Below, one piece after another: positions 4,303-25,724 of a stretch of DNA of 64,000 nucleotides; positions within the stretch are counted from its first letter, which is position 1, and each line of letters opens with the position of its first letter. Source of the DNA: a virus; the IMG/VR virus record IMGVR_UViG_3300028581_000024, positions 1 to 64,000 of that record. One strand, written 5' to 3'. The notes under the pieces were generated by a model that was not told the DNA's origin, ran no database searches, and saw only the letters and a list, made by a program, of their open reading frames with translations. The translations under genes were made by a program, and so were the position numbers.

Positions 4303-5297
4303 CCAACGAAGAATTCAGGTGGGGGTGCATCACCAAACCCTGCTGCACGTTCATATAATTTCTTTTCCAAATCAGCTTTTTCCTCACGACCATTGTTCAG
4401 CATATCATTATAATTAATAGACCCGCCGCCGAACAGCTGGGTGTTTTGATATTTACCACGAACAGATCCAATTGCTATTTTTGTTAGAGCGAGAGCGTAT
4501 TGATAGACCCAAGGCTCTTTAATAATATCGACTAGAGGGCGCTCAACATACGCTGTCACAATACCATAAAAATGTGAACTACTACTACGGGGCGGCGGGA
4601 ACAATTGCATGTATTGTGTGCGACTGTCAAAGTGAAAATCACGTCTCAGGGCCAAAACTTTTTCGCGAGTGTCCAGCCAATTCTTCAAAACATTCCAACT
4701 GACCAAGTCAAATCCATAATTGCCCAGAGCATAGCTGAAATAACTCTGTTGTGCCAATGATTGTTCAATGGTAAACAAAGTGTTTATGCCATTGCTACTG
4801 CCTTCTTCAAATTCTGTGACATCAATGACACGGCGGTAATCATCTAGCAAATAATCGTAACTGTTTAATAATTCTAATTCATTTGGTCTGCTTTGATCAA
4901 CAACTTGATATAGGTATGGGTCTGCTGGGTCACCAATAACCATCCTACCAATTGAGTACATTGATTTAATTTCTGGGGAAACATCTTTAAATTTGGCTCT
5001 AAAGTTAAAATCTTTGGTCAAACTAAACAAAACATCCAACCGCAATCCTTTAAACTCTTCGTAAAGCTTACTATCAAAAACTAGATATTCTTGTGTGTAC
5101 CCTGCAAACTTCGTAAACATTTCACACGCCATACCAATAAACTCATTCAACTGATCTGCATGAATTTCTATGTTTATGAGTGGTGCACCTAGTGCACGAC
5201 AAATACGTTGCCCAAGCCGTTCATAGCTTTGGATCTTTGATTGTAGGTTAGTACTATAGAAAGAACTCACCGGTTCCACATCACTGCAAATCATCAT
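4299..5297 (-). CDS. gp13: Neck protein
   Basis: RALGAPLINIEI, WVYQYALALTKIAIGSVRGKY, GGGSIN, C-terminal PPEFFVG. Confidence 0.9.
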   Translation of the reverse strand: MMICSDVEPVSSFYSTNLQSKIQSYERLGQRICRALGAPLINIEIHADQLNEFIGMACEMFTKFAGYTQEYLVFDSKLYEEFKGLRLDVLFSLTKDFNFRAKFKDVSPEIKSMYSIGRMVIGDPADPYLYQVVDQSRPNELELLNSYDYLLDDYRRVIDVTEFEEGSSNGINTLFTIEQSLAQQSYFSYALGNYGFDLVSWNVLKNWLDTREKVLALRRDFHFDSRTQYMQLFPPPRSSSSHFYGIVTAYVERPLVDIIKEPWVYQYALALTKIAIGSVRGKYQNTQLFGGGSINYNDMLNNGREEKADLEKKLYERAAGFGDAPPPEFFVG

Positions 5298-8200
5298 ATA
5301 ATAGTTATTCCATCTCCACCAGAATAAGGCACACTTCCACCAAGAGTTAACCCATATATGGGCGTTATTGTGTCTGTTGTGTTTGCACCAGCTGGCATTG
5401 GATCTAAACTTATGCCAGGCCCATTATAATATGTGTAATCTGCATTCAAATTATAATAGTACTTGGTGGGCTTGCCATGCAGCTTGCTGCCATTGCTTGT
5501 GAATCTAATCACAGTCACACTGAGAGAAGAAGGAGCAATAACAGATGTGGTGCCACTAGATAGTTCATATACTTTTGTGGAAAATACATAATCTGAATCA
5601 AATACAAGGGTGCGGCCACCTGGGTCATCTTGCTGTACTACTAATGTATAATCACCCCCTTTCTTTTTTGTACCAACAGGCACAATATTTTGCACAAAAG
5701 CATTTGCCGACAAATTGACAAAGGCAACTTGATTGGCAGAAAGATTCCAATTGAACAATTCGATTTGATTTACATTGGTATACTCTTGAGCGGAGAGTGT
5801 TAAGAATTTTAATACAGCATTTGACAATCGTTTGGGGTAATAACCAAATCGTCTGATATAGCCAGTAAACCCATCCATGCCCCCTGCAGCTGACGCTCCA
5901 ATAAACCCACTGCTCAAATTGCCTGGCACCAAGGATACAATACTAGTCCCTACAATATTGCCTGAATCAGCCAGAGTAACATTGTTCACAGCGTAGCTTA
6001 ATGCAAGTGCACGTGGGTAATCAATTCTATTGTTAGGCGAAGTTAGATTATAACCAAGCGCTACTGAATCATTAACTGTGCCCCTGACATTTGCAGTGTA
6101 ATTGTTTTTATATCTTAAGGCAGTTGAATTGCTTGAACTATCATTAGTGAATCTGTACAATGAGAAGCCGCTTGCCGATGCTGCTGTGGTGCTAGGAATC
6201 AATCTTGTTTCAAATAAAAATGTTCCCTCGGTATTATTGAGAATGGCACCAGACACAAAGCCGTATTCTGTATCCCTTGTGTAGTATGAGGAGCTAATGG
6301 TGGGTATGTAGGATGATGGCACAACATTGGGAACATCTATATTTTGTTCCAATTGTGCACCCCACACATAAACAGTTCCATTGGAATTATTAAAATTGTA
6401 TGCAGGGGCTATGCGAATGGATGTATTAGTGGCAGAGTAGTAGGGCAACACAATTCGATACCATTGTGCCTGTGGAAACGCATATGAAAACGATGACAAT
6501 ATGCTTGTGTAACTGGACAGGGTATCCAGAGTTGTACTGTCCACAATTTTTATTCCATAGTCTGCTGCAGATAATGTGCCAAGCTTCACATACAATGAAA
6601 GAATATAATCTGCACTTGGGTTGATGGGTATTGTGTAGGAATATACTGTGTTGGATGTGATGGGGGTAACAACAGTGGCAGGTAAATTGTAAGCAGGCGA
6701 GGCTCCACTCTCAGCAAGTGGTGTTTCAGTGAAAAATGTTGTCATGGCGCGGTCTGTGCCATCATATGCAAATGCAACAAACAAGCCATCCCAACCACAA
6801 GTGACAGTGCTCCATTGGTTTGCAGCTGCTGCCACATATCCACGCCAAATCTTACCATTGCGCGAGTACATGGTACGTGTTGTACCGTCAAGAGAAACAG
6901 CAACAAAAATGCCATTGCCATAGGTTACTGAGCGCCAACTGTTTTGTTCAATGGAATCATATGTGCTCCAGTTCACACCATCAGCAGAAATCATTACTCT
7001 GTGTGCACCATCAGAGGCAACAGCAACAAACAACCCATTGCCGTAAGCTACACTTGTCCAGCTATTATTCTCAGGCACCGGGTATGCAGTCCATGTTTCA
7101 CCATAATCTCTTGACACCATGACGCGATTTGTGCCAGTATTAGATATGGCAACAAATATACCATTGCCATATGCTATTGATTGCCAACCATTCCCTTCTG
7201 CTGCAGCTGCCGACAGCCATGTAACCCCAAGATCAGACCGCATGACTTGACACAAGTCTGTGCCGTTTACAGCTATGGCATCAGCAACAGCAACAAACCA
7301 CCCATCACCATATGTAACTGATGTCCATGTGGCTGGTTCTGGTGCATCCCGCCCAACCCAAACTGAGCCTGTGTTTGAAGTGTTTATTCGATTGACATCA
7401 CCAGCGCTTGCCACAATCACAAACGAATTGTCACCAAAAGCAACGCCACACCAATCAGAACTGGTGGTGGATGCTTGAGTTGTCCAACTAATACCATCCA
7501 ATGAGGTGGCTAATGTGCCACCAGTGCTGCATGCAACAAATGCTGGTGTTGTGCCACTGAATAGACCTGAAACAACCCCTGTCCAGGTAGTCAAAGCAGG
7601 GGTACTAGAAGCCCAGGACATGCCGTTAGCTGGTAGCACCTCCCAATTTACAATTTCACCTCCATACGGTACAAAATTTGTTCTTGATCGCTCAAACAAA
7701 GATCCTTCACACTGCCAAACACTCAGTATGTTGCTATATTCATGATTAGAGCGGGGTAAATTTTCTCCTACAAACCGTATTTGCCCATTTTTATCTATAT
7801 AGCTTGCAGATGAATTTCGAACATAGGTAAGAAATCCACCTGTGAGGATATTGGCCGTTGTATTGCCGCCCATGAAGTCACCATACAATATTGCTGAAAT
7901 TGTTTGTGGTGCCAAAGTTGTGCCTTTAAAATTATGCGCTTGTGTTGACTCTTGTGGTGTGGGCAATCGATAGGTTGTAGCTTCAAATGGCCAGTCAGCA
8001 CTATAGGTGTTTGTTATGGTGTATGTATTTTCATACCTGGCTGATGTTTGGCTGTAGGTAGTGGCAAAACTAGCAACGTTTTGCCAGTTTGAACTTAATG
8101 CTGTTACTGTGTTATATGTTGTTGGATACAGGAAATAGTCTGCACTGTTACTGCAAAGGGCGGTGTAGGCCGATTGCCACCTGGTACTGTTTGTGGATAT

Positions 8201-8356
8201 GGCAGGGGTGTAGGATGGTATTACATTGTAGAAAGTTCCTACAAAAGGATCATCTGCACCTGCTATGGGGTCAATACCACTGTCAACATACCCGTGTGTT
8301 GATACCGAGTGATGATTGGTACTGTGAAATTTGTTGTGAAATGGTGTATTGCTCAT
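5294..8356 (-). CDS. Tail fibre/adhesin-like protein with WxSVxYGNGxFVAV beta-propeller repeats
   Basis: About six tandem W..V.YG.G.FVAV repeats, a carbohydrate-binding-like sandwich (VYVWGAQLE), 14-residue SxxWxxxYTT repeats, and a His-rich N-terminus shared with the next ORF. Confidence 0.75.
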   Translation of the reverse strand: MSNTPFHNKFHSTNHHSVSTHGYVDSGIDPIAGADDPFVGTFYNVIPSYTPAISTNSTRWQSAYTALCSNSADYFLYPTTYNTVTALSSNWQNVASFATTYSQTSARYENTYTITNTYSADWPFEATTYRLPTPQESTQAHNFKGTTLAPQTISAILYGDFMGGNTTANILTGGFLTYVRNSSASYIDKNGQIRFVGENLPRSNHEYSNILSVWQCEGSLFERSRTNFVPYGGEIVNWEVLPANGMSWASSTPALTTWTGVVSGLFSGTTPAFVACSTGGTLATSLDGISWTTQASTTSSDWCGVAFGDNSFVIVASAGDVNRINTSNTGSVWVGRDAPEPATWTSVTYGDGWFVAVADAIAVNGTDLCQVMRSDLGVTWLSAAAAEGNGWQSIAYGNGIFVAISNTGTNRVMVSRDYGETWTAYPVPENNSWTSVAYGNGLFVAVASDGAHRVMISADGVNWSTYDSIEQNSWRSVTYGNGIFVAVSLDGTTRTMYSRNGKIWRGYVAAAANQWSTVTCGWDGLFVAFAYDGTDRAMTTFFTETPLAESGASPAYNLPATVVTPITSNTVYSYTIPINPSADYILSLYVKLGTLSAADYGIKIVDSTTLDTLSSYTSILSSFSYAFPQAQWYRIVLPYYSATNTSIRIAPAYNFNNSNGTVYVWGAQLEQNIDVPNVVPSSYIPTISSSYYTRDTEYGFVSGAILNNTEGTFLFETRLIPSTTAASASGFSLYRFTNDSSSNSTALRYKNNYTANVRGTVNDSVALGYNLTSPNNRIDYPRALALSYAVNNVTLADSGNIVGTSIVSLVPGNLSSGFIGASAAGGMDGFTGYIRRFGYYPKRLSNAVLKFLTLSAQEYTNVNQIELFNWNLSANQVAFVNLSANAFVQNIVPVGTKKKGGDYTLVVQQDDPGGRTLVFDSDYVFSTKVYELSSGTTSVIAPSSLSVTVIRFTSNGSKLHGKPTKYYYNLNADYTYYNGPGISLDPMPAGANTTDTITPIYGLTLGGSVPYSGGDGITII

Positions 8357-9108
8357 TCAAGGTATTTGGTTACATCTCCATACATCAGGGTTCCATCACT
8401 AACAAAAGTTATAACTGTTCTGCGATTTGGTGTAATGTCAATGATACCAGATTGCAGTGGGGTGTCATTGAAGCGGTAAGCTGTATCAAACGATGCATCA
8501 TTACCAGCAATGGCAGGCTGCAGACATGTCAACACATATGTGCCACCCTTTTTCATGTTGAGAGGATTGGATACAAAGTAGCTGCTGATCATTCTTATGA
8601 AGGTACATTGATCTGCATTTAAATCCCAAGATAACGTAAGTGGTGAGTTGTTGTTGGCGAGATTCGTGCCGCTAAATGTCTTGGAAGCAGTGTATTCCTG
8701 GGCAACGCCTAGATACATAACACCCGGTATATTCCATTGCGCGCTAAATGTACTAACAGTAGTGTAAACAGACTCATATTTTGAACTGTTTGCCTGAAAT
8801 ACTGTGTATGCCACATAAGCATTATTCCAATTATCAGAAAGGGTATTAATTGTTGTGTACATTGAGCGGGTATTTGCCCAATTACCAGAGAGAGTATTAA
8901 CAGTATTATATGTGGACCACCACTCAAAACTATTGGTTGGTATATTATATGAGCCAGCACCATCTGTTAATATAGTATAAAAGACCCCTTTAAATGGTAA
9001 TTCTTCTGAAGCAATAGGATCAGTATTAGAATCAGGTATAGTTATAGATGGAGCAGTATGATGACTTGCTCGATGTAGCTTACTATGAAATTTAAATGTT
9101 CCTGCCAT
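8353..9108 (-). CDS. Short fibre protein, paralogue of 5294..8356
   Basis: FHSKLHRASHH...DPIA...PFKGVFY N-terminus, WxSTYNTVNTLSGNW repeats, and a C-terminal KKGGTYVL...VITFVSDG domain. Confidence 0.7.
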   Translation of the reverse strand: MAGTFKFHSKLHRASHHTAPSITIPDSNTDPIASEELPFKGVFYTILTDGAGSYNIPTNSFEWWSTYNTVNTLSGNWANTRSMYTTINTLSDNWNNAYVAYTVFQANSSKYESVYTTVSTFSAQWNIPGVMYLGVAQEYTASKTFSGTNLANNNSPLTLSWDLNADQCTFIRMISSYFVSNPLNMKKGGTYVLTCLQPAIAGNDASFDTAYRFNDTPLQSGIIDITPNRRTVITFVSDGTLMYGDVTKYLE

Positions 9109-9114
9109 AAAGCC

Positions 9115-10932
9115 TTATATAATAATTATGCCCGAACCACCGGTATAAGGGGCAAGATTAGAAATTGATATGCCACTATCATTGACAACGCCATCAGTGT
9201 TGCTGTAAGCTTTGAACACAGTTGGCTTCAATGATATGCCATCCCCTTGGTAGTAAATTGTGAAATCAAACATAGCATTATTGCTAGCAACTGATTTGGG
9301 TAGTAAGTTTGCATTGATATTATCCTGGTTAATAATTGAATTGAGAATTTGTACCTGGTAGTCATAGATTTTTTGCAGATTTCTGTTGATTGCTGCACCT
9401 TGGAAGTTTTCATTTATACAGACATTAGCAAATGTATTGACATCCAGCACAGTGTCTGTAAGAAAAAACGTATTGTACTGTTTTGAAACATAAGTTGTAA
9501 GTCCAGTAGTAGTTTTTCCTTCAAAAAATCTATACCCAGTGTTGCTGTTTAATAGTATTGTATTGTAAAGAAGCTTTTTAAATGCTTTATTATAAACCCA
9601 TGCTTGGTTATACTCATCTTTATTAATAAAAATATCTTGTAATGTGTAGATAGAAAAATCCTCATCCCGTTGCAAAGAGAAAATATTCAAGCCATCCTCA
9701 TACAGCAGAATTCTACCACTGGATAAAGTAGAGTGGTTAGCATACCACAGAATCTGATCTGTGGACACGTTTGGCACAACAGTTAGCCATTTACTAACTC
9801 CTGTTTGATAGGATATGCCAATTGTGGAGTTTGGTTTGGTTGTCCATTTTTTAATTATGGCATTGTTTGCTGTTAGTATGTAGAAGATTTGTGAATCATA
9901 GTTAGCAAATTTTAAATCAACAATTCTATCGCCACCCAGCACGATGTTTGAAAAATCATAGGATGTTGCAGACAGAACAGTATAATCCGAGGTTACATTC
10001 ATCACATACAGTGATTTGTCATTACAGGCAAATAGCTGATTGTCCCGAATGTTGTATGCCATTGCATTGAACCGACCAGCACGTTCAAACAAGGTCTTTA
10101 ATACTGTGGTGTTTAGCCAGTTTAGGTTTTTATCAAACGCTTTGATGCACTTGTTGCCAGTATCCTCTGCAAACAAAATCTCTCCAGTGTAAGCAATTTT
10201 ATTTAAGGAATTAAATTTGGTACGGTCAACTGATGTTCCCTTGCCCCCAATATAATTTGTCAGAAAGAATTTTTGTGCTGTACTGAACAATGTATCAGTA
10301 ATATCATATGTGTAGATATTATTAAGATTTTGATCAGCCACAAAAAGAATATCTTTATTTGTATCAATGGCTATGCCTGTAATGTTATTAAACCCAAGGC
10401 TACCCGACAGCGGATCTATGTTGCGTTGTGTTACTACAAATGGGCTGCCATTCACAACCAAGGGGTTAGTGTACTGGCTTGAGAAAGGTACAATTGTTAG
10501 AGTGGTTGGGCTTGCAGTAATTAAGACTGGAGAATTAAAGGTAGGTGCAATGTATGACAATGCCAGAGTACTATCACTGATTGACGCATATTGCTTGCCC
10601 CCACTCACAAAACTCACAGCATTGGTCGGATTTACTGATGGTGAGAATAGTTTAAATTCAAAAGCAGAAGTTGGCATGGCACCGGTGCCAGTGAGTCCAA
10701 ACCAACCAGAGTAAGTACTGGGTATGCTGTACCCTGCCACATTGCATAGTTTGTAGAGATATAAAAGATTGAAATACAATTTTTCAAGCTTAATGTTCAG
10801 AGTGCTTGCAACTGCCAACTCATTGGGCTGCAGTTCAATTTGATCGTAAGTAAACGGCAAGCTAAAAACATCATCAACAGACCGATCAAGCACCAACCCA
10901 TATTTTATGGCCTCATTTGCAATGCTATTCAT
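9115..10932 (-). CDS. Virion structural protein with NHL-like beta-propeller
   Basis: ITGIAIDTNKDILFVADQNLNNIY and LFAEDTGNKCIKAFD blades. Start moved to the second Met (10932), which follows AGGGAG and overlaps the upstream stop. Confidence 0.65.
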   Translation of the reverse strand: MNSIANEAIKYGLVLDRSVDDVFSLPFTYDQIELQPNELAVASTLNIKLEKLYFNLLYLYKLCNVAGYSIPSTYSGWFGLTGTGAMPTSAFEFKLFSPSVNPTNAVSFVSGGKQYASISDSTLALSYIAPTFNSPVLITASPTTLTIVPFSSQYTNPLVVNGSPFVVTQRNIDPLSGSLGFNNITGIAIDTNKDILFVADQNLNNIYTYDITDTLFSTAQKFFLTNYIGGKGTSVDRTKFNSLNKIAYTGEILFAEDTGNKCIKAFDKNLNWLNTTVLKTLFERAGRFNAMAYNIRDNQLFACNDKSLYVMNVTSDYTVLSATSYDFSNIVLGGDRIVDLKFANYDSQIFYILTANNAIIKKWTTKPNSTIGISYQTGVSKWLTVVPNVSTDQILWYANHSTLSSGRILLYEDGLNIFSLQRDEDFSIYTLQDIFINKDEYNQAWVYNKAFKKLLYNTILLNSNTGYRFFEGKTTTGLTTYVSKQYNTFFLTDTVLDVNTFANVCINENFQGAAINRNLQKIYDYQVQILNSIINQDNINANLLPKSVASNNAMFDFTIYYQGDGISLKPTVFKAYSNTDGVVNDSGISISNLAPYTGGSGIIII

Positions 10933-13900
10933 TTCGTCTCCCTGCATTAGTTAGTGTATTGCCTGGAAAATATGGTTGTAAATATGTTGCACTTTGACTT
11001 GGCAGTGTTGTGATCCACTTGAGATTGTTGAGCTTTGAATAGGCAGGTGTTATATCTTTTATTCTATTAATGATGGCAACATTCAATCTGTCACGGCAAG
11101 TGTTGTCAAGCACATTGTCGTTTATGTAAATATTATAAAGCGTACTCTTAGCGCCAGGCACACCTTGCTTGAAATAACGGGATGCTATGTCCAGGAAGTT
11201 GCGCTTACCTGAAGGCATGTCAAATGTTAAATCATTGGGCATGATCCGCTCTTTATAATGCATGCCAATATCAAAATAGTCGAGCTCTCTGTTATACAAG
11301 TAGAAATTTTGTATTTCAAAATCTTTCACAAAGTAGCTAGTTTTTATGCTTTTTGCGTTGTCAAGATAGTCGCTCAACAGCAAACCATTATAATATGGTG
11401 TTGCACCTGCAAATACTCTGTCTGTGAGTAGAGGCATAAAGTTGTATTTGTTAGGCTCAAATGATGTTGTGCTGTATAATTCTCCATCCAAATAAAGCTT
11501 CAATGTGCCTGCTGGTGGATTGAGAGCAATAGCGAAATGATGATACCCGCTGTCCAGATCACTACCTTGCACAGTTACAGAAGGAATTGCTATATCTTCT
11601 GTATTAAACTGATTATACAATCGAGCTTTGAATGTCAAGACACCTGTGCCATACCGATACTTTAAATAGGAGTAATTAAAGTTATGATTACAAGGTTCGA
11701 TCTTGGAGTTAAAGCTACCGTTCACATCAATGAATGTGGTATCAATCACGTTACCGTCATAATCTAATTTAAATCCTACTGCTTTGCTAACATCAGATCC
11801 GCTTGCCGTAACTAATACTGATTGTTCCAATTCACCATTATAAAAATTTTCTATAAAAGTAACATTCTTTATGTTAACAGGTTGTGTAGAAAACGCTGAA
11901 GCTGCTACAAGGGCAGTAGTAAATGCTAAGGTCTGATGGGGGCCGTAGACTGCTATAAAATTACTGTCACCAGCCCATATGTTATTATTCATATCAATAT
12001 TAAAAAACGAAAATGTACCTTTGGTGCCAGCAACAGTGCAGAGTTGACTTGTTGTTGTGTTGTATTTGCATATAATGCCTGAGCTAAGAAAAAACAAACC
12101 ATCACTCCTGACAATACTATTTGTACCGTCCACAAGAATAATTCTACCATCCAACAGCCTGGATACCTGTAATGCGTCAACTGGTTTTCCAATAATTAAG
12201 TCTGCAGATGCAGGATATACCAGATTGGATGTCAAGTCTATTGCACTCAGCCCCCTATCAGAATACAACACATACCCTCGGGCCTCATCATTAGATGCAT
12301 GAATTATGTTGTACTTAGAGCTAGAGAGAGCTGGTGTTGCATCAACAATGGTTTCACGTATGTCATACTCCACTACCTGCATTCTATCGGTAATAACGTG
12401 AAATGAATTAAGAGCGTCACGGCGAAGAACAAAATCAATATTTCCAAAAGTAGATAGAGCTGTATCATAAGTGTCCACTGCATCCAAATCAGCATTATAT
12501 GCAACAAGAGCACCATTCTTACCATAAAACAGCAAAGGCGTTACTTGAGAGTAATTAAAAATCCCGAGACCATAATCATTGTAATTGCCAAAAATTTCAT
12601 ATCCCAGGGGTTTATTCCAATTGGAACTGTTTGCCCACAAAGTCATTGTAAAGGTGTTGGTATCTAGCTTGATGTTATTAACGTCAAAATAACTATATCG
12701 ACGCCCATCAAAGGCGTATGAGGTAAGATTCTCATTTATGATAGGATCCACATTAGTACCATTCCATATTGAGTAGTATGTAAAGTTTTTTTGTTTCAAC
12801 GTCTTTGACAAACTATTGATATTATTAATTGCATCAATTTTTCCAAAACGAGAATATGCATACCAACACCCTGGTTCCAGAGTTAAACTAGATGGAGTAT
12901 CAACAATGCCAGTTTTTAAATTGTATCCGTCAAAAGATGTAATGTATGTTACATTGCCATCAATAGCACACAGAGCTTGAAATGCTGTATTTTTTGTGGG
13001 TGTATAGTATCTATCCATCCACACAGGTCTCACATTTTTATCATTACCACCAGATAACCAGCTGCAAAGCCACTGACCTGTTTGTTCTCCTGTGGCATCA
13101 CCTTGATTGCTTGTGTACTTGTAATTGGCTTGCTTTTTGAAAATCTTATCACTCTTCAAGGGGTGGTTACCTGCAACTGCACCTGCCTCAACTAATTTTG
13201 ACGATTTAATGTTGAGTCTTTTGTAAGGGTACATATCCTGAGGTGTATGAAACCATGTTGTTTTACCTTGGTCGAAGGTGTATGGGGTTGAATAACAATC
13301 ATACTGGAGATGAAGCTTTTCATATCCTTGCTCTTGCCGTCTTCCTGAAAAAATGGTATTATAATTTCTGTAAAAAGTTGCATTTTCATTAATGAACACA
13401 TTACCTCTGCCTTGCTGATTTTTTATATTCAGTTGATTCTTCAAGGTTAAAATATTGGTCTTTAGAGTGGAGCCTTCAAGGTTCTCAAACTCACTATGCA
13501 ATAGGAAGTTGTTATCTATGCCAAAAAAACTATCCGCAACATTTATGTTTAAATTATTTTGATTGAATCCTGTCTCATATGTACCCCAGTCGTTGGTAAT
13601 CTCTGGAGCAGTAGGAACATCAAAAAAATCCATATAAAACCCTTTTCTTACACTATTGAATGCAATATCACTAGTGCTGGACAGGGATAATTTTCGATTA
13701 TTAACATCGTTTATAATATAGTATGCAAATCCTCTGATTCTCACTTGAAGAGTAAGCTCTCTTGTGGTTTTATCAAAAGTATACACAAACTTTCTCGTAT
13801 AATCATTAGAAGCACTAAACGCACTCAACACTAAGAAATCTAAACTCAATGAGCTAGGATTAAATGACAAATAGTATCTATTGTTGTTGGTTGTGAGGTT

Positions 13901-14338
13901 GGATATAGTAGCAAGGTATGGATTGATCATATCCACCTCAAAAATACAATTGTTTGCAATACCGGACAGCGTCACAGTCATGGAGTTGGTAAAAGACAGT
14001 TGCGATAAACCAGCAGGGGTGTTTGTAGGTATGTTTGTAAGACTCAGGTGTCTGTTTACACCGTCTACAGTATTATATATGGTGCCAAATAATACATTAT
14101 TGAGCTTTTCTGGAGTTTTAAAATCTGTAATTGAAGCCAAATCCAGAGGTTTTGTCAGGTGTAGAAAACTATAATTGTTGTTATTGAAGTCATGTGTTTC
14201 CAGGAAAATAGGGGAAAAAAAAGTAGACAGATTACCATCAATACATATGCTCTTATTAGTGAAATCTATTTGATTATCATATATATAGGAAGCACTCAAT
14301 CCCTTATAATTACTTGGTGTTACAAAACTGGTAAGCAT
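10925..14338 (-). CDS. Large virion protein with split LamG-like domain and beta-propeller
   Basis: FTMTLWANS... and GYHHFAIAL...LKLYLDGEL halves of a LamG/concanavalin-like fold flank beta-propeller-like repeats. Late promoter upstream. Confidence 0.65.
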   Translation of the reverse strand: MLTSFVTPSNYKGLSASYIYDNQIDFTNKSICIDGNLSTFFSPIFLETHDFNNNNYSFLHLTKPLDLASITDFKTPEKLNNVLFGTIYNTVDGVNRHLSLTNIPTNTPAGLSQLSFTNSMTVTLSGIANNCIFEVDMINPYLATISNLTTNNNRYYLSFNPSSLSLDFLVLSAFSASNDYTRKFVYTFDKTTRELTLQVRIRGFAYYIINDVNNRKLSLSSTSDIAFNSVRKGFYMDFFDVPTAPEITNDWGTYETGFNQNNLNINVADSFFGIDNNFLLHSEFENLEGSTLKTNILTLKNQLNIKNQQGRGNVFINENATFYRNYNTIFSGRRQEQGYEKLHLQYDCYSTPYTFDQGKTTWFHTPQDMYPYKRLNIKSSKLVEAGAVAGNHPLKSDKIFKKQANYKYTSNQGDATGEQTGQWLCSWLSGGNDKNVRPVWMDRYYTPTKNTAFQALCAIDGNVTYITSFDGYNLKTGIVDTPSSLTLEPGCWYAYSRFGKIDAINNINSLSKTLKQKNFTYYSIWNGTNVDPIINENLTSYAFDGRRYSYFDVNNIKLDTNTFTMTLWANSSNWNKPLGYEIFGNYNDYGLGIFNYSQVTPLLFYGKNGALVAYNADLDAVDTYDTALSTFGNIDFVLRRDALNSFHVITDRMQVVEYDIRETIVDATPALSSSKYNIIHASNDEARGYVLYSDRGLSAIDLTSNLVYPASADLIIGKPVDALQVSRLLDGRIILVDGTNSIVRSDGLFFLSSGIICKYNTTTSQLCTVAGTKGTFSFFNIDMNNNIWAGDSNFIAVYGPHQTLAFTTALVAASAFSTQPVNIKNVTFIENFYNGELEQSVLVTASGSDVSKAVGFKLDYDGNVIDTTFIDVNGSFNSKIEPCNHNFNYSYLKYRYGTGVLTFKARLYNQFNTEDIAIPSVTVQGSDLDSGYHHFAIALNPPAGTLKLYLDGELYSTTSFEPNKYNFMPLLTDRVFAGATPYYNGLLLSDYLDNAKSIKTSYFVKDFEIQNFYLYNRELDYFDIGMHYKERIMPNDLTFDMPSGKRNFLDIASRYFKQGVPGAKSTLYNIYINDNVLDNTCRDRLNVAIINRIKDITPAYSKLNNLKWITTLPSQSATYLQPYFPGNTLTNAGRRNE

Positions 14339-17289: not shown

Positions 17290-17293
17290 ATAT

Positions 17294-17301
17294 TATTTAA
17301 T
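17294..17301 (-). promoter_or_regulatory. Late promoter variant ATTAAATA, 4 nt before ATG
   Basis: ATTAAATA-atat-ATG(17289). Confidence 0.65.
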
Positions 17302-17303
17302 CA

Positions 17304-20300
17304 TTAATAAAGATACGCGGAAATAATTCTATTTGTGGTTATTGGTATGCGCACTTCTCCGTTAGATATTCTTATATTACCACTGGAAACATATGGTGCA
17401 CCAGTGGTGTCTAAGCTCAAGCTAGCATCTGACAGCAGAAGAGACTCATTTTCAATTAGTTCTGCAGTGATTGATGGTGTAAATGTTATGCCGGCACCTG
17501 CAGCATATGGGTATATGACACCATCTCCAAAGTAAGCACTGACCTGACATGCATTGGTAAGAGTAGTTTGCACAGAGGCAAGAGTACCTGCAGCAAACAC
17601 TGCTGTGCAAATAGGGCCACCAGCAGGTCCACAATTAATCCTAGGCGGCACACTGGATGTTACACCACAATTAGTACCAAATCTTTGTATTTGTAGTGTG
17701 TAGAAGTTACCAGCGCTGAAGGTTGCCACCATGGTAACATCTGTATCCATTGTAATGGGTATGGCGCTAATGCCAAATCCCAACACAGTGGTTCTACTCG
17801 ATAATCCCATTGTGGTATTACCTGCAAATGCAGAAGCATATAATGTTAAAACGGTACCACTCAGTATGTTGTACTCAGTAGCAAAATTAGGATTCTCAGC
17901 CTGGGCATATATGCCTAGTGTATCGTTCTTCACATAACCAACACCGCCACCGCTAAAGATAATGGACAAAGTATAAAATCCAATATCAAACACTGCAGAT
18001 AAAGAAACATCAGAGGCTATTACAAATGATGTGGCATCTTCAACAGTGGTTGCATATGATGGAGTATTTGTCCATCCCTTGAATTGATATCCCCTTGCAG
18101 GTATGGCACTCAACACCACTGCAGTGCCAATGCCATTGATTTGTCCAGTACCTGTGAAGGGATACGTGCAGGTACCAGTCTGTCCACCTATTGTTCTTCC
18201 AGAACAATTGATATTGTATGTATTATCAAATTCAGTGGTGGATATAACACGACCATAATCTATTAGATCGCTTGCTGTTGTGACTGTATTTACAGTCACA
18301 TTGTAATCATAGTAACGCACATAATATGCAGACACACTGGCTGGCTCTGTTACAGAGAACGAACAAATATACCTGTCAGATATGCCTGCACAAGGTCCTC
18401 CATCCAATCCCATGAACCACCACCCTGATATTGCAGGTTGTGCTGATAGAGATATATTGGCATTACGCTTGTAAGAATGAGAGAAGGCAATGGGTGTGCT
18501 TATGATGCCATCAGTTGTCGTTACTCTACCCACATCAATCACGTAATCTGGTGTTACATAATATCCTAATGAAAATGCTTCAATAGTATAAAACGGAATA
18601 GCATTAAACACAGCTGTTATGATTTGACTGGATGTAATGTTGAATGCACAATCAGAAAATATTGAACCATCACATGGCCCGCCAACCCAACCACCAAATT
18701 CACTGACAGAATTAGCAGATGCTATAATTGATACAGTGCTACTGTAAGGAAATTGATTGAAACAAATACTTCCACAATCAATGCAATATGGATCGGTTAC
18801 TACTACACCACTACCGGTGCCTGTTTTAGTAATGTATACATCTCTGTATATACTCTGGGGATCGTTGCAAAAAGGTATACTATCAACAGATGATACAGGT
18901 GAAGTGAATATAAATTTAAGAACACTTGGATCGGGATAAGTTGGACGTATGATCTCACAATTGATAGGTGCGGTAAAATTTACATAATCTGCATAAGGGT
19001 AGAGGTATATGGCTGCAGAAAGAGTATACCCCAATGATGTAAATGGCGGGTCTACAACCCCTGCAAAGGTATCTCCTGATACAGCTGTAACTGTCAGCAT
19101 ATACGAATATGTTTGGATAGTCGCGTTAAATTCTTCTATAGTTAAGGTTGGCAAGGTAGACACTACCCATTTATTATAATCACCGTAAAGACTAGGAATG
19201 AGTCCATAATTGGTTTGACCTGGCAGGGAATTGAGCTGCTGCCCACTGATTGTATTAATAGATAAAATATCAGCCATTGCAGTCAATACTGGGTAATATG
19301 ATATAGCGGACAAGCTAGTCACAGTGGCGTATGTAGTAGAAAACGCAATGGCTTCACCTATTGTTTCTCCATAAGTATCTAGCACCACAGCATTCTGGGT
19401 ATTGCTATTGAAGATTAAATTGTTGCCAATGTTTTTAATAGGGAACCCTGAGCAACCTACAAATACAGTCAACTCATTATAGGACTCCCAATCAAATTGC
19501 ACTATGTAGGTTCCAATATTATTCATCTGCACTGGCTTGATACCATCAGCAAACAAATATGTTAATTCTTTGTTTTCACCTGCAAACCCAACATCGAAAT
19601 AACCAGATTTTATGAATTGACCACCCATTGTACCACCAACTGCACCAACATACTTAACAAGAAAGGGCATTGATGGATTATAGTAATTGTTATCATAAAC
19701 AAAATAATATGGTCTGAACATTCGAGGGTTAAATGTCTCAAGAAATCGATCCCAGTCCCCATCTTTAAGCTGCTCATTAACAAACAAAGGCATACCATTG
19801 AGATTTTTAGCCAAGTATGTGAAATTAAATAAGCTCTTTTTTTCTGATTTGGTAAAACTAACACCATCTATTTCTACTATATTAATCTGTGGTGGCTCAG
19901 CAAATCCTGCACTCAATGAATATGAATTAATTGAAAAATTTGAAGTAATTGTGGAGGGGTATATTTTTTCCACATTAATATTTGTGAGTGGTGTTTTGTA
20001 TATGGTTGGATATAATATTTTATAGTTTGAACCAGACAAATAAGGTAGTAGATTTAAGAATGCCACATATAATGTATTTTCCCTTTCTGAATACCATTCA
20101 CCTGCAAACCGCTCAAGCTTACTATCTGTAAAGTACTTTGGCATGTAGAATCCAACTGTATTATTGTTAATAATCTTGCTTGCGTCAAAATCATAAGATA
20201 ATGAGTCTATTATAACATAATTAGCAGTTTCTAAGACAAATGTATCGTAATACATGTTAAAATAGAGCACTGAACTGGACATCTCTTCTCTAACTTGCTC

Positions 20301-22100
20301 TGGGTACTTGATAAATATTGCACTCAAAGCAGCACTAGCAGGTGTAACTAAGGAGTCTACACCGCGGAAATAAAATATACCTGGTATTGTGTATTTTCTA
20401 TCGTACGTACTTTTCAATGATATGGGCTGGCTTGATAATATTACTGTATTACTGCCAGGCATTATACTTGCGTCATCATAGTCTATGGCTGTAAGAGCTC
20501 GTAATGGAAATATATTCTTAAGAACCCCATACTCATTGCCAAATATGTCACTACCCCAATAGGCAGGGGTGAGAGAGCCAGTTAATAGAGAGTTTTGTCT
20601 TTCCTGCAAGGGTAGAGTATCAACCTGATCTAAGCCAGACCAAATATCCGGATTGGCCCATGTACCCTGTCTATCGCCAGTCCAAAACTGAATATTATCC
20701 ACAGCTTTAGAAAAACCAGAAATATCTTTTTGCAAATCCTGCGATTGGCTTTGATAACCATAATAGAGTTGATTGTAGCTATTGGATAAGACATCACCAA
20801 ATGCAAATTGGTTTGATCTATTAATTTTATTCCATTCCACATTTATGGTGTACGCTAACGGCACATGTGTTGCATCGTCATTACTATTATATGACACGTT
20901 ACCAACCACCGCGGGATCAGGGAAAGCATAAATTGTGTTGGGTGCTATTTTAGTAGTATCAATGTCAAACGTTTTCTCTGGAGTATTATGAATGAGCAGA
21001 CCTGTGTACTGAGGTAAGAAAAATCTTCCTAGCTGATATTGAGTATATAGTGAATTTAGATTAGGTACAGATGCTGTAGTAGGGTACTGTTTGTTAAGAA
21101 AATTTAATGTGGGCGAGCTTGTGGTGGATCTTGTTGTGAATAGTATGCCACTCACTATATCTGTAATAGTGTTACCAGTACTGAGATAGTAGAAATCTGT
21201 ACCCACATACTTTGGAGCTAACATTTTCAGTACGTTCAATTTTAATTCTTCTGTACCACCACTCAAGTAAGAAACAAAATCTCTATTCTTTAAATAATAT
21301 AATTCATCACCTGATAATATGGGGTTAATTGTAAAATTACTTGTGCCTAGCGTTCTTAAGAAAAAGGGATATTGCTTGATGGCATCTATAATTGCATTTT
21401 TAAAGTTTATATATACATTAGGATAGATGGCATGTATATTCGCTGCACTCAATGACTGTCTGCTTGAACTGTATTGCTCAAAAATTCCAGTCGCGCTTAA
21501 CGGGCTAATGTTATAATATGTGTCCGTTGTATCATACAATTCTTCAACATAGACACTGAGACCTCTTGCAATGGCCGATACAGGTGGGAAGCTACATGTA
21601 TATTGGGTATAATCGATTTGATTGGTTCTCGCAGCATCAAAAATTAACTTCTTGATAAGATTCTCAACGCCTAAATTGCTGCCGCGTAAATTATGTTGAA
21701 TAGGCGCTGTTTTTATTTCCTCCCTAGTATTTGCATAAAATAGACAAATACTCTTTATTTTTTGAATAAAAAACGGCAGGATAACATCAAGATCGAGTGA
21801 GTCAGAGAAGTTGGCATTACTAATAAAGCGCTTCTCTTCTTCTGTACTAAAGTTCACAACAATTTCCCGTAAGATCTGTATATAAGAATCCCGAACAATA
21901 TTTTGCGCTTCAGTCTTATTCTTGCCCTTGTACGCACTCCACTCTAGAATATAGTTTTTATAGCTTTGAAACGTTACATTGATATCGAAGTTAATTAGGT
22001 TTTGTTGATTGAACCATTGCAAAAATGTAACTGGTGCATAATAATCCAGAGGCTCTTGCGATTCATCTAGAATACTATATTTAAATGCATTTGTACTCAT
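17304..22100 (-). CDS. Large baseplate/fibre protein with C-terminal InlB B-repeat-like domains
   Basis: Repeated KTGTGSGVVVTDP..IDCG..C, VVLSAIPARGYQFKGW, SEFGGWVGGPC motifs typical of divergent InlB B-repeats. Confidence 0.7.
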   Translation of the reverse strand: MSTNAFKYSILDESQEPLDYYAPVTFLQWFNQQNLINFDINVTFQSYKNYILEWSAYKGKNKTEAQNIVRDSYIQILREIVVNFSTEEEKRFISNANFSDSLDLDVILPFFIQKIKSICLFYANTREEIKTAPIQHNLRGSNLGVENLIKKLIFDAARTNQIDYTQYTCSFPPVSAIARGLSVYVEELYDTTDTYYNISPLSATGIFEQYSSSRQSLSAANIHAIYPNVYINFKNAIIDAIKQYPFFLRTLGTSNFTINPILSGDELYYLKNRDFVSYLSGGTEELKLNVLKMLAPKYVGTDFYYLSTGNTITDIVSGILFTTRSTTSSPTLNFLNKQYPTTASVPNLNSLYTQYQLGRFFLPQYTGLLIHNTPEKTFDIDTTKIAPNTIYAFPDPAVVGNVSYNSNDDATHVPLAYTINVEWNKINRSNQFAFGDVLSNSYNQLYYGYQSQSQDLQKDISGFSKAVDNIQFWTGDRQGTWANPDIWSGLDQVDTLPLQERQNSLLTGSLTPAYWGSDIFGNEYGVLKNIFPLRALTAIDYDDASIMPGSNTVILSSQPISLKSTYDRKYTIPGIFYFRGVDSLVTPASAALSAIFIKYPEQVREEMSSSVLYFNMYYDTFVLETANYVIIDSLSYDFDASKIINNNTVGFYMPKYFTDSKLERFAGEWYSERENTLYVAFLNLLPYLSGSNYKILYPTIYKTPLTNINVEKIYPSTITSNFSINSYSLSAGFAEPPQINIVEIDGVSFTKSEKKSLFNFTYLAKNLNGMPLFVNEQLKDGDWDRFLETFNPRMFRPYYFVYDNNYYNPSMPFLVKYVGAVGGTMGGQFIKSGYFDVGFAGENKELTYLFADGIKPVQMNNIGTYIVQFDWESYNELTVFVGCSGFPIKNIGNNLIFNSNTQNAVVLDTYGETIGEAIAFSTTYATVTSLSAISYYPVLTAMADILSINTISGQQLNSLPGQTNYGLIPSLYGDYNKWVVSTLPTLTIEEFNATIQTYSYMLTVTAVSGDTFAGVVDPPFTSLGYTLSAAIYLYPYADYVNFTAPINCEIIRPTYPDPSVLKFIFTSPVSSVDSIPFCNDPQSIYRDVYITKTGTGSGVVVTDPYCIDCGSICFNQFPYSSTVSIIASANSVSEFGGWVGGPCDGSIFSDCAFNITSSQIITAVFNAIPFYTIEAFSLGYYVTPDYVIDVGRVTTTDGIISTPIAFSHSYKRNANISLSAQPAISGWWFMGLDGGPCAGISDRYICSFSVTEPASVSAYYVRYYDYNVTVNTVTTASDLIDYGRVISTTEFDNTYNINCSGRTIGGQTGTCTYPFTGTGQINGIGTAVVLSAIPARGYQFKGWTNTPSYATTVEDATSFVIASDVSLSAVFDIGFYTLSIIFSGGGVGYVKNDTLGIYAQAENPNFATEYNILSGTVLTLYASAFAGNTTMGLSSRTTVLGFGISAIPITMDTDVTMVATFSAGNFYTLQIQRFGTNCGVTSSVPPRINCGPAGGPICTAVFAAGTLASVQTTLTNACQVSAYFGDGVIYPYAAGAGITFTPSITAELIENESLLLSDASLSLDTTGAPYVSSGNIRISNGEVRIPITTNRIISAYLY

Positions 22101-22103
22101 TTG

Positions 22104-25100
22104 TTATGCTCCATAGGTTAGGTCTTGTGTATTGTAATTTAATAGTTGAGATAGATATTGTAAGTCTTTATTTGCGGGAATAGGCACTGGGGCGACTGGA
22201 CTATCAACTACAACTGGCACCTTGAACAGCTCCAATCCCTCATACAGGGCACGGGCAAGTACTGTTTCCATGATTCCACCATATTTTTGCCACTCCTGAT
22301 AATTGTTGTCTGTTGACAGAATAGTGGTAAGCGGGTTATTAAAATCAATTACATTATCAACCACATTGTTGGCAGCATAGGGGTTGTATTGATAAAACAT
22401 ATAGTATGGTTTAATATCTATGCCCGATTGTGCCTTATTTCCAGTAACTAACCCCCATCCCCAGTAATAATTTACACCACTTAGCGGGTATTGCTCACCT
22501 ACAACAACTGGGACACCGTTTGTCTCTGGTATTATAGTATTGCTTATGAGTTTGTACTTCTCGCTAAACTTCTCGTATGCCACAACAGGCTGACCTACCG
22601 TAAATGCACCTGTGTCGATCGATATCTCCGCGCCAAGATTACTCCCCAAATCATATCGAAAAGTGCTCAATCCAAAATTTTGATTGTATTGATTTGTACT
22701 GCCAAATAATTTTGAGTGATTGATACTAAGCAAATCCACGCTTCGTTTCAATTTAGAGGGGTACCCTGAAGTGAAATCGTAATACTGCAGCCCATACTGT
22801 TGAGCTAAACTTTTTAGAGACTCTGTTGTACATGTCTCTGGGTCAGAGGTGTTTGCATTGAAATTGGCTATTCTTTCGTAAATAGTTTTACCTAAAACCT
22901 CTGGTGGGCTATTGTAGTCTCCAACTATCTGTCCAATAAAATCATCCAACAATATATTCTTATCAAATAGAGATTCCTGCAGAATGTAACTCTTATAACT
23001 GGCAGCTTGATCAAAGTTTTCATTTATTTTATTGATAATAGGGGTGTTTTGTATTATATTAAAAAGATTGCTTGTGCCTCGTATAATTCTTGGAAGTGGG
23101 TTTATTATAGAGGCGTACTTGTTGACCCACCGAACACCTGTCCAATCTCCAAATACACTGTAAAATGCTTGCATGCCATCAGGCGCAGTCAATTGAATAT
23201 CTGGTAAATTTAAATTATATAATGATGAAAGTGGCGGTTGGGTAGCAGTATTTTGAGGAAAGAAGTAAATTTTTCCCTCGTAGTTATGGAGAATCCAGAC
23301 ATACCCTTCATTATCAGCAGCCACACCATCTATGCCTTGGTAATATCGTGAGTCAAAATTAGAGCTACCAATGAAATATTCTTGCACATCATTAGTTGTG
23401 GAGTGAATACGAGAGAGATTGGAGAATGCATGATGCACCCAGATATTCTGATACAAGTCTATGGTAATATTGCCAATGCTGTTGAATTGCAGTGGGTAAC
23501 CTGATACTAAATTCAGATTGGAATCCCACTTGTATATATTATCATAATTTGCAAATGCGTTCGGGTCATTTTCATTTAAATTCTTAGCAAAAGCAATTAA
23601 ATGGTTATTCTTATCTACAATAATCTCTTGTATTGATAGTGGAGCTTCAAAATTAATAACACTGAGTTGTTTTCCTGAACTACTATATTTGACTAAAAAG
23701 CTTTTAACAGGGTGACTATAACCTACCCACACATTATCTGCTGTGTCAGTATCAATGCATGATGGAAGAATTAAATTTTCACCTGTAAACCCACTCAATG
23801 TATCTTTTGATGATATGTACAGCGCAGGATCTATCAATACAGTATTTTCATATGATGGTACAGCAATTGCATCCACCACATCTGTGTTGGTATTGATGCG
23901 AATTGTTGAAATGGCGTCATACAGGGTCACCCAAGCGTTGCCCTTACTATCAATAGCAATATTTGAAGGGCTGGCGCTGTCGAGATCCCCTAGATAGGAT
24001 CTTGCCTCTGGAGCTGTGAAATTATCTATAAAAGTTGGAACAGCAGAAAGCTTGAATGTATTTAATATTGTTCCAGACAGTGTATATACATACACAATAT
24101 CTTCATCTGAATCTGCCACCCATACTTTATCAATATTACCCATGCTATACGATTTGAGTGGGGATATACTCACTGGCATAGTTGAGCTTGATGGTGTGAA
24201 GTAGGTTTGATAATTGCCTGTCAAATCAAAGTGCAGATCTTCATAATGGGCATGAGTAAAGATGGGTTCCTTGCTGAAGCGCTTTATATTCTTAAAGCCA
24301 GGCTGTCCTGCAAATCCATAACTAGCTGCTGAATTTATAACAGGACTATCTTGTATTAGAACTGCTGCACTTATTGCTACAGTTGATGCTGGGAATGCTT
24401 TGTTTAGAACACCACAAAAGTAAGCTCCGCTGCGCTGGTATTGTGGGGCATTGGTGTTTTGTCTGAAAATGGCATCATCAAGTTTGTATGTACTGAGGGT
24501 TGTAAATGCTGCTGTTGGGTCTTGTGCAACAATTCTATATAATCCCAAGCTAACGGTATTGAGATCTGTTGGATCGGACCCATCAAATTTAAATCCCGTT
24601 ATTGGTGGGTAGCATTTTGTGGTGAATTGATCCACGTCCTTAAATGTGACTACAAATGGTATATCAGTATTACACCATTTCACTGGATATATACTAAACG
24701 AATGTATGAGTTGGCTTGATAGCGGTCCTATATTTTGCTGGGTACCTTCAGTGGATATACCATTGCTTGTAATGGCAAGACTCTCTGCAGGGTTAAAAAT
24801 GGATTTCAAGTAACTTACTTGGGTTGGATAATTTACATACCCATAGGGATAGTTAGCAGTATTAAATTGCCGATCATCAATCGAGGGATCAAGTTCTAGA
24901 AATCCTTTTGTATTAAAGTTTGCATATAAAAATATTAGTGTATCGTCATTGGATGACGGGCGCTGATCAACATAAGAAACATTATAGTCAATAGATGTAC
25001 CAGTTGTACCTGCAAAAGCAGTGCCTGTCTTTTTAAAATTATAAAATTGTAGTTTGCTATAATCATCCGACCACCCAGCAAACACACTAGTACTAGTTGT

Positions 25101-25724
25101 TCGTGTGCTATCAATAAGTCTTGAGCTACCAATACCCTCTGGTGTAGTGTATGTTTCTATAAATCCAAAATAACTTCTCAAATGACTCCATTTACTTGTA
25201 TAATACGATGACACCGACATAAAATCACTATGACTACCACTTGCATACAACATGACTGTGTAGTCGTTGTCATTCAATAAATCATTATTTTGCCAAGAAT
25301 TATAGCGCCATATCTCAAGTGGATCACTTTTTTTACCCGCGGGCAGAGTGTACACACCAAGAGTTCCTGCTGGTTGTAAATTGTTAAATATGACTAAATC
25401 AGGTAACGCATTTTGCACAGTAACTGAGGCGACTGTAAGATCTGGTGTTATGCTAGCAGTTTGTGCATTTCCTAAATTATCATAAACTACTGCAGTTATT
25501 GAATATGTGCCTGGGTATTTGTAAGAGTGAATGGCACTAGGACCTGTAAACGTTGTACCATCACCAAAATTCCACAAAATACGAAATCGATTGTAGGTAT
25601 CATCGAATAAAATGGGCTTAATATAAAAAGGTGTGCTTGGCAGCGTATAACTTGTATATGTTCTTGGAGCTGTACCGGTGTCAGCTGTAGTGATTTGTAT
25701 TCTTACGGCCGTTAACGGCAACAT
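22104..25724 (-). CDS. Baseplate wedge gp7/P2 gpI-like protein with PKD and beta-propeller domains
   Basis: ILWNFGDGTT..HSYKYPGTY PKD; PSNIAIDSKGNAWV blades; DPETCTTESLKSLA gpI/gp7-like motif. Directly downstream of gp6. Confidence 0.65.
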   Translation of the reverse strand: MLPLTAVRIQITTADTGTAPRTYTSYTLPSTPFYIKPILFDDTYNRFRILWNFGDGTTFTGPSAIHSYKYPGTYSITAVVYDNLGNAQTASITPDLTVASVTVQNALPDLVIFNNLQPAGTLGVYTLPAGKKSDPLEIWRYNSWQNNDLLNDNDYTVMLYASGSHSDFMSVSSYYTSKWSHLRSYFGFIETYTTPEGIGSSRLIDSTRTTSTSVFAGWSDDYSKLQFYNFKKTGTAFAGTTGTSIDYNVSYVDQRPSSNDDTLIFLYANFNTKGFLELDPSIDDRQFNTANYPYGYVNYPTQVSYLKSIFNPAESLAITSNGISTEGTQQNIGPLSSQLIHSFSIYPVKWCNTDIPFVVTFKDVDQFTTKCYPPITGFKFDGSDPTDLNTVSLGLYRIVAQDPTAAFTTLSTYKLDDAIFRQNTNAPQYQRSGAYFCGVLNKAFPASTVAISAAVLIQDSPVINSAASYGFAGQPGFKNIKRFSKEPIFTHAHYEDLHFDLTGNYQTYFTPSSSTMPVSISPLKSYSMGNIDKVWVADSDEDIVYVYTLSGTILNTFKLSAVPTFIDNFTAPEARSYLGDLDSASPSNIAIDSKGNAWVTLYDAISTIRINTNTDVVDAIAVPSYENTVLIDPALYISSKDTLSGFTGENLILPSCIDTDTADNVWVGYSHPVKSFLVKYSSSGKQLSVINFEAPLSIQEIIVDKNNHLIAFAKNLNENDPNAFANYDNIYKWDSNLNLVSGYPLQFNSIGNITIDLYQNIWVHHAFSNLSRIHSTTNDVQEYFIGSSNFDSRYYQGIDGVAADNEGYVWILHNYEGKIYFFPQNTATQPPLSSLYNLNLPDIQLTAPDGMQAFYSVFGDWTGVRWVNKYASIINPLPRIIRGTSNLFNIIQNTPIINKINENFDQAASYKSYILQESLFDKNILLDDFIGQIVGDYNSPPEVLGKTIYERIANFNANTSDPETCTTESLKSLAQQYGLQYYDFTSGYPSKLKRSVDLLSINHSKLFGSTNQYNQNFGLSTFRYDLGSNLGAEISIDTGAFTVGQPVVAYEKFSEKYKLISNTIIPETNGVPVVVGEQYPLSGVNYYWGWGLVTGNKAQSGIDIKPYYMFYQYNPYAANNVVDNVIDFNNPLTTILSTDNNYQEWQKYGGIMETVLARALYEGLELFKVPVVVDSPVAPVPIPANKDLQYLSQLLNYNTQDLTYGA

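Follow-up and report, generated by a model that had tools for sequence, protein, structure and literature searches.

Why one short peptide unit recurs in the outer tail proteins of an uncultured virus is the question raised by the DNA described here. The window, i.e., the whole stretch of 64,000 nucleotides that was analysed, corresponds to bases 1–64000 of a 92,062-bp linear IMG/VR contig (record IMGVR_UViG_3300028581_000024), for which the CheckV completeness estimate is 43%. Judging by Pfam and PHROG matches, the source is a distant T4-like myovirus. The T4-type head and tail matches include the gp23 capsid protein, the gp21 protease, gp25, a gp6-like wedge protein, the sheath and the large terminase; on the replication side there are gp32, a gp41-type helicase, primase, the clamp and clamp loader, UvsX and a family-B polymerase, and QueC and amidotransferase genes are matched as well. 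The closest cultured phages are T4-like cyanophages and the pelagiphage HTVC008M, with a gp6 identity of just 23–26%, so that the lineage must be regarded as uncultured. Downstream of gp25 and gp6, the interval 5294–25724 encodes the peripheral baseplate and fibre module in the form of eight large late genes, all on the minus strand. According to the preliminary description of this interval, a motif [LIVF]-[ST]-[AG] saturates the outer virion proteins and marks a candidate phage-encoded O-glycosylation system. The analysis narrows the signal to L-S-[A/G], which we tentatively take, at slightly less than even probability, to be a lineage-specific structural micro-motif of peripheral tail-protein modules.

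An L-S-[A/G] excess in the peripheral tail proteins

In what follows, the "class" is [LIVF][ST][AG], the tail set comprises nine baseplate and fibre proteins (7,422 amino acids (aa) pooled), and expected numbers come from per-protein composition shuffles. The tail set contains 91 class sites against 47.9 expected (z 6.6); the enrichment thus survives correction against composition-matched shuffles, and a pure composition effect is ruled out. L-S-[A/G] is found 34 times against 6.7 expected, about 5x chance. Among all 8,000 tripeptides, LSA ranks first (21 vs 3.28, P 6e-11) and LSG second, and even a first-order Markov model predicts 7.9 LSA against the 21 observed. Permuted residue orders are not enriched in the tail set, SAH excepted (1.6x).

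The fold excess in the tail set declines from LSA (6.4x) through LSG (3.8x) and LSS (2.8x) to LST (2.1x); [IVF]S[AG] reaches about 2x and LT[AG] 1.4x, with 10 LT[AG] to the 34 LS[AG] at equal expectation. Once LS[AG] is subtracted, 57 class sites are left against 41 expected, i.e., 1.38x. The lineage-specific part of the signal is therefore L-S-[A/G/S/T], or L-S-[small]. The motif as first defined merges generic beta-strand grammar with a strong, lineage-specific L-S-[A/G] unit: the latter stands, whereas the remaining class sites show the same generic 1.38x as in outgroups. The word "saturates" overstates a density of about 1–2 sites per 100 aa. Codon usage at the sites is mixed, as Leu is encoded by each of its six codons and Ser by codons of both families, so the signal lies at the protein level and a DNA-level motif is ruled out.

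The main carrier is a 1598-aa peripheral baseplate or fibre protein (17304..22100, minus strand, as are all genes given below). It has 13 LS[AG] and 33 class sites, the latter against 11.1 expected (z 6.6), and its nine LSA, at PLSAT 201, SLSAA 217, ALSAI 592, SLSAG 729, SLSAI 930, TLSAA 1027, SLSAQ 1218, VLSAI 1330 and SLSAV 1367, compare with 0.69 expected (z 9.8). The 1206-aa protein encoded at the gp7 position, a wedge protein with a PKD domain (22104..25724), bears 15 class sites vs 6.9 expected (z 3.3). In the 324-aa tail protein (14357..15331), eight class sites (ISA, ISG, LTA, LSA, LSG, FSA, VSA and ISG; 2.0 expected, z 4.6) are present, four of which are kept in relatives. LSA is found five times vs 0.58 expected in the 1020-aa protein with EPTP and Asp-box-like signatures (5294..8356) and three times vs 0.41 in the 1137-aa protein with LamG-like and WD40-like turn features (10925..14338). 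The 610-aa protein, with a propeller hint (9115..10947), has seven class sites vs 3.8 expected; the 653-aa protein, with an FG-GAP hint (15328..17289), has four, which is not an excess. Beyond these, the tail sheath (38602..40992) carries three LSA vs 0.46 expected (TLSAS, PLSAN and ALSAL), all of them in a clade-specific N-terminal and middle part to which outgroup sheaths do not align; most members of the clade retain those at sheath positions 237 and 482. On recount, the motif numbers of the preliminary description were exact in every protein that it listed, and its observation of a single LSA in the polymerase was likewise confirmed.

The gp6-like wedge protein (25726..27597) serves as an internal negative control, with no class sites where 3 are expected. 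Non-tail proteins show no class excess (94 vs 89 expected), and in the capsid protein LSA is missing and class sites are at the chance level (3 vs 2.96 expected). Homology among the tail proteins is limited to modules shared by the 1020-aa protein with the N- and C-termini of the 251-aa protein (8353..9108) and to a 50-aa C-terminal match between the 1020-aa and 610-aa proteins. Recurrence of the motif across mostly non-homologous outer virion proteins, as originally claimed, is therefore borne out. By eye, the C-terminus of the 324-aa protein, a GxGI...PY..GxGI tail, resembles the C-terminal match of the 1020-aa and 610-aa proteins. On sequence grounds, the C-terminal module shared by the 1020-aa, 251-aa and 610-aa proteins (and the 324-aa protein) could be a common docking element.

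The LS[AG] excess is a property of the whole lineage. It amounts to 3.4–8.5x in 39 of 39 related baseplate loci (gp6 identity 41–94%); one further locus, at 34% gp6 identity, has too few sites for judgement. Distant lineages, sampled through IMG/VR scans, show it as well (3.0–8.9x in 18 loci), though the 1598-aa protein and its homologs there share only 24–31% identity. The gp6 orthologs of these far lineages (~600 aa) have zero LS[AG], and the absence of motif sites from the gp6-like protein and its far orthologs may indicate depletion. In a complete 229.7-kb relative, the most LS[AG]-enriched proteins are all large structural ones, some of them encoded at other loci. In relative G002, 1.25 kb separates the gene of an 813-aa subtilase-family protein (L027:7554-9995; PF00082, E 1.2e-29) from that of a 2179-aa LS[AG]-rich structural protein, and a 417-aa open reading frame (ORF) lies in between.

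Outside the lineage, T4 tail proteins have no excess (LS[AG] 6 vs 5.3, class 40 vs 44 expected), and LS[AG] reaches just 1.2–1.4x in those of HTVC008M and the cyanophage S-MbCM100, where the rest of the class has the same 1.38x value. A generic property of T4-type tail proteins is thus rejected as the source of the LS[AG] excess in view of these three phages and accepted for the residual class excess. The outgroups have extreme tripeptides of their own, namely FEG (14 vs 1.0) and TLT (38 vs 10) in HTVC008M, GSG (26 vs 5.7) in S-MbCM100 and HSH in T4, which come from repeated structural modules. Lineage-specific structural signatures are therefore normal in such proteins. The HTVC008M signature, [IV]FEGSTxDSFETTLT, lies in three paralogous pelagiphage fibre proteins, and the S-MbCM100 signature, GSGY, in cyanophage proteins of 6064 and 1009 aa.

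Conservation and structural context of the sites

In the family of the 1598-aa protein, roughly every second site is retained by 19 or more of the 25 sequences compared. An alignment of 40 family members has 22 conserved motif columns vs 1–6 for control patterns, and under strict filtering isolated lineage-specific sites occur at 0.89x and 0.78x of expectation. The entire excess resides in positionally conserved columns. Turnover of sites was considered as evidence for a sequon and discarded, since an apparent 2x surplus was gone once L/V/I swaps and near-column misalignments had been excluded.

At the conserved sites, the first position is occupied by L (58%), V (19%) or I (13%) and the third by G (50%), A (36%) or S (9.5%). 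The middle position is S in 85% and T in 6.7% of cases, vs 68% and 14.5% at ordinary conserved Ser, i.e., the motif Ser is the stricter of the two; in every tail protein, retention of Ser/Thr is greater inside the motif than outside. The wider context is weakly defined. A longer form, LS[AG]-x3-5-[IL]YP, recurs at a subset of sites, and N-h-[ST] is found upstream of LS[AG] in 15% vs 6% of cases (P 7.5e-4). Indel proximity, taken as a proxy for loops, was neutral. In the tail set, the patterns S[GA]xT, [ST]GxT, DxS, Gx[TS][GA] and DS[AD] are not enriched (0.65–1.15x), nor are the Bacteroidota O-glycosylation sequon D-(S/T)-(A/I/L/V/M/T) (32 vs 29.2, 1.09x) and the N-glycosylation sequon N-x-(S/T) of the HMW1C/NGT type (94 vs 108, 0.87x).

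The C-terminal third of the 1598-aa protein (residues ~1060–1598; 17304..18923) is an InlB-B-like (Flg_new_2) beta-sandwich array of about six repeats. PF18998 (InlB B-repeat/Flg_new_2) matches residues 1306–1372 (E 3.1e-14, 53 bits vs a cut-off of 23.6 bits), an hhalign self-comparison links windows over residues 1021–1560 (P 86–98%), and a single-repeat hmmsearch finds 114 repeat copies in 40 family members. Fourteen of the 33 class sites lie inside these repeats, where the motif falls on two consensus positions, and are therefore paralogous copies. In 34 of the 114 repeats, Ile, Val or Cys stands at the middle position of the motif, which is thus semi-buried.

No such array is evident upstream: a search for hidden tandem repeats in residues 1–1060 found a single in-register pair, the longer-form sites 217 and 688 (P 35%). 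A first AlphaFold2 model, of residues 140–780, was poor for residues 140–480 (pLDDT 30–40). A second one, of residues 500–1060, was built from 45 sequences with a pLDDT of 72.5; for residues ~500–800 (19701..20603) of this model, the top 50 VIA-align PDB matches are all propellers (Z 6.8–8.4 over ~160–235 residues), so that the region looks beta-propeller-like, and Pfam gives propeller-type hints in four further tail proteins. All five modelled LS[AG] have their Leu in coil just before a strand or a short helix (the model is ~49% coil; binomial P ~0.03), and the strands contain five of the remaining seven class sites. As to whether the hydroxyl residues are buried in beta-strands, the LS[AG] sites of the model are in coil, the 14 sites in the InlB-B-like repeats are repeat consensus, and most of the other modelled class sites are strand residues.

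L-S-[A/G] may be a structural micro-motif, a reading to which we give somewhat less than an even chance and which we nevertheless prefer. It would belong to modules such as beta-propeller blades, InlB-B-like beta-sandwich repeats and similar units. The Leu would fix one secondary-structure element to the core at its end, the hydroxyl of the Ser would satisfy backbone groups where the next strand or short helix begins, and the tiny Gly or Ala would permit a tight turn of the chain. Recurrence would result from the building of these proteins through repeated duplication and shuffling of such modules, which would since have diverged past sequence recognition with the exception of the L-S-[A/G] unit; the residual [IVF][ST][AG] sites would be ordinary amphipathic beta-strand grammar. 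In favour of this reading, the whole excess sits in positionally conserved columns without a surplus of new sites, the modelled LS[AG] precede strands or short helices in a model with a propeller-like region, and 14 class sites occupy consensus positions of the InlB-B-like repeats. The third residue is nearly always small, Thr is rare at the second position, and longer sub-patterns recur. Tail proteins of the outgroups, too, have tripeptides that are just as extreme, specific to one lineage and derived from repeated modules, and core proteins of other folds, gp6 and capsid, lack the motif.

Several findings weigh against it. Most carriers have no detectable mutual homology and the flanks are weakly patterned. 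Conservation is 0.71 at the motif Ser and ~0.50 in the flanks, below the protein mean of 0.57. Neither Asp/Asn, the typical caps, nor Ala/Gly, which are merely small, replace the motif Ser except very rarely. The helix-cap forms LSP, LSE and LSD are not enriched in the tail set, nor is LSN; with Asp/Asn hardly ever substituting, a helix N-cap or hydrophobic staple is ruled out as the general cause. Three of the five modelled LS[AG] sites coincide with locally low-confidence loops despite their near-invariant Ser. Finally, the two repeat positions, which are S 5/T 12 and S 0/T 10 in non-clade proteins, have shifted from Thr to Ser in this clade (S 66/T 7 and S 41/T 51).

Glycosyltransferase genes and the competing explanations

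Several of these findings lend weight to a second explanation, which restricts the preliminary proposal to Ser and to L-S-[A/G]: the motif would be an acceptor signal for a Ser-directed modification of outer tail proteins, a possibility on which we would not bet. Its likeliest form would be cytoplasmic O-glycosylation by a phage glycosyltransferase of the GT-B fold, perhaps with a GT-A-like enzyme and an RmlD-like short-chain dehydrogenase/reductase (SDR). Profile and cluster matches bear out that the genome encodes candidates for all of these and for a nucleotidyltransferase, as was noted earlier. The predicted GT-B "group 1" glycosyltransferase (62854..64000, with the ORF running past the window to ~64095, 413 aa) matches PHROG 7162 (E 8.5e-23) and viral "GT group 1" clusters, and the putative GT-A-like protein (Glyco_tranf_2_5, 221 aa; 55042..55707) matches PF13712 clusters and is present in six of six lineages; the two proteins belong to glycosyltransferase families spread across viruses. 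The RmlD-like SDR (49151..50023), whose score is well under the equivalog cut-off, is present in five of six. The predicted HIGH-family nucleotidyltransferase (RfaE-II/TagD-like, 58036..58527) lies in the QueC cassette and is not conserved along with the motif. Beside the RmlD-like gene, at 50020–50460, is encoded a 146-aa protein with three LSA vs 0.06 expected and a hydrophobic N-terminus, which is kept at 62% identity in the complete relative G002.

The distribution of the motif agrees with a modification: it marks nine or more peripheral virion proteins, most of them not homologous to one another, along with the outer part of the sheath, but not gp6, the capsid protein or enzymes. The motif Ser forms a conservation island within variable flanks; its commonest substitute is Thr, with Ala, Gly, Asp and Asn rare; the modelled sites lie in loops, three of low confidence, and the shift from Thr to Ser relative to non-clade InlB-B repeats fits the same explanation. 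The GT-B and GT-A-like genes also track the excess, being absent from cultured T4-likes that lack it: cultured T4-likes have no GT-B, and cultured matches to it are only ~25% identical. Besides, PF00303 (the thymidylate-synthase-fold hydroxymethylase) is absent from G002 (100% complete) and G006 (88%), in which positive controls were detected, and no Pfam TGT/DpdA-type transglycosylase was found in G002. With neither enzyme in the complete relative, the usual partners of DNA glycosylation are missing too. Neither glycosyltransferase has a Pfam match at E up to 5, the T4 glucosyltransferase families included, and the GT-B has no NCBIfam or PDB sequence match.

Other properties of these genes point away from tail proteins. 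Both glycosyltransferase genes lie among replication genes and, in common with polB and gp32, have sigma70-type early promoters; the tail genes instead have T4-late boxes. The GT-B adjoins polB in seven of seven relatives' contigs that reach the region and, in four closer relatives, is 84, 83, 72 and 62% identical vs 78, 77, 61 and 55% for polB. It was found on 551 IMG/VR contigs, and among the matches listed all belong to one broad lineage; two far-lineage copies contain one in-frame TGA each. Co-occurrence of motif and glycosyltransferases holds to the extent that both enzymes are present in every excess-bearing lineage whose contig reaches that far, but this amounts to a single phylogenetic contrast. 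The cytidylyltransferase (nucleotidyltransferase) of the QueC cassette is not conserved, being absent from G002, which is complete and motif-rich. As to the sites, newly gained ones are not in surplus, Ser far outnumbers Thr, the third position is a tiny residue, paralogs have Ile, Val or Cys at the same repeat position, the capsid protein is unmarked, and the comparable outgroup tripeptide excesses are structural. There remains a minority chance that a large, abundant and wholly uncultured low-GC aquatic T4-like group O-modifies, and probably glycosylates, L-S-[A/G] serines on its baseplate, fibre and outer-sheath proteins by means of an orphan polB-linked GT-B and a GT-A-like partner.

It is unlikely that there is no single cause at all and that the signal is a composite of unrelated signatures which happen to share [LIV]-S-[AG], such as the InlB-B strand consensus, an Asp-box-like S-x-D-x-G-x-x-W, WD40-like turns and the starts of short helices. 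Some sites do fit this description. By eye, the 1020-aa protein has SDLGVTW-LSA and ISA-DGVNW and the 1137-aa protein W-LSG-GNDKNVRPVW; other sites occupy the InlB-B positions, site 592 lies at the start of a short helix, and the 1.38x class-level excess is generic and shared by outgroups. Chance overlap, however, would not put LSA at the top of 8,000 tripeptides, would not persist (3.0–8.9x) over some 58 baseplate loci across deep lineages and would not be absent from T4, cyanophage and pelagiphage, which themselves have beta-rich tail proteins. Least probable is recognition of L-S-[A/G] by a lineage-specific assembly factor (a chaperone or docking partner) of peripheral tail proteins, which would give non-homologous proteins a common cause limited to late peripheral components and agree with conserved sites in variable flanks, but for which no candidate factor was identified, while up to 13 sites per protein, spread over the full length and inside repeats, are unlike a docking tag and the separate shared C-terminal module already looks like a docking element.

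Two further features of the window may be mentioned. The 7-deazaguanine genes (QueC and amidotransferase) are at 56616–58527. A TnsA-like endonuclease ORF (3847–4302; PF08722, E 1.2e-21) has a 332-aa ORF on one side and the prohead protease gene on the other and, by its sequence match and position, looks like a homing-type insertion within the head module.

Significance and comparison with known systems

If L-S-[A/G] is structural, as we prefer to think, it provides a compact, searchable marker of a previously unrecognised module family and of a wide uncultured T4-like lineage, and points to the residues on which the cohesion of these giant adhesin-like proteins depends. Should it instead signal a modification, this would be the first case in which a sequon directs the decoration of a myovirus host-recognition apparatus, with consequences for host range and for protection against proteases or antibodies, and it would bear on what two orphan families of phage glycosyltransferases, carried by hundreds of environmental contigs, do. 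Either way, calibration matters for sequon-like claims: repeats give equally extreme tripeptides in outgroups, and the apparent turnover of sites vanished under strict filtering.

Among known glycosyltransferases, the T4 alpha- and beta-glucosyltransferases, which act on hydroxymethylcytosine in DNA, resemble the enzymes described here in being early GT-B-fold proteins encoded among replication genes; here, unlike in T4, there is no match to a Pfam family and no thymidylate-synthase-fold hydroxymethylase in the complete relative. GT-B enzymes are also known to decorate many Ser of large surface proteins prior to export or assembly, as GtfA/GtfB do with serine-rich-repeat proteins and the heptosyltransferases Aah/TibC with AIDA-I/TibA. 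The acceptor Ser in these systems lies beside small residues or at beta-strand–loop–strand elements. Searches of Pfam, NCBIfam and PDB sequences did not link the phage GT-B to the GT9 or GtfA families, and the RfaE-II-like nucleotidyltransferase, a possible maker of ADP-heptose, is not conserved, although the host could supply the donor.

Mycobacteriophage virions are reportedly O-glycosylated by phage glycosyltransferases; capsid and tail-tube subunits are said to be modified, according to mass spectrometry, on Ser/Thr-rich C-terminal extensions. The two cases are alike in the presence of phage-encoded glycosyltransferases and in their proposed cytoplasmic action on the phage's own structural proteins. 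They differ in that the capsid is unmarked here and the candidate L-S-[A/G] sites are dispersed over baseplate and fibre proteins.

The closest parallels to the structural reading are the repeat signatures of T4-like tail fibres, i.e., cyanophage GSGY and the pelagiphage signature given above. Like L-S-[A/G], they are short invariant units with P of 1e-10 to 1e-12, confined to tails and to a single lineage and located where the chain turns or a strand ends in beta modules, and the flanks of GSGY have diverged too. Asp-box or WD40 turn motifs are comparable short signatures of turns and strand ends in beta modules. Compared with the fibre signatures, the unit described here is distinguished by only three shared residues in near-unpatterned flanks, by at least nine carriers without detectable mutual homology and by a stricter Ser.

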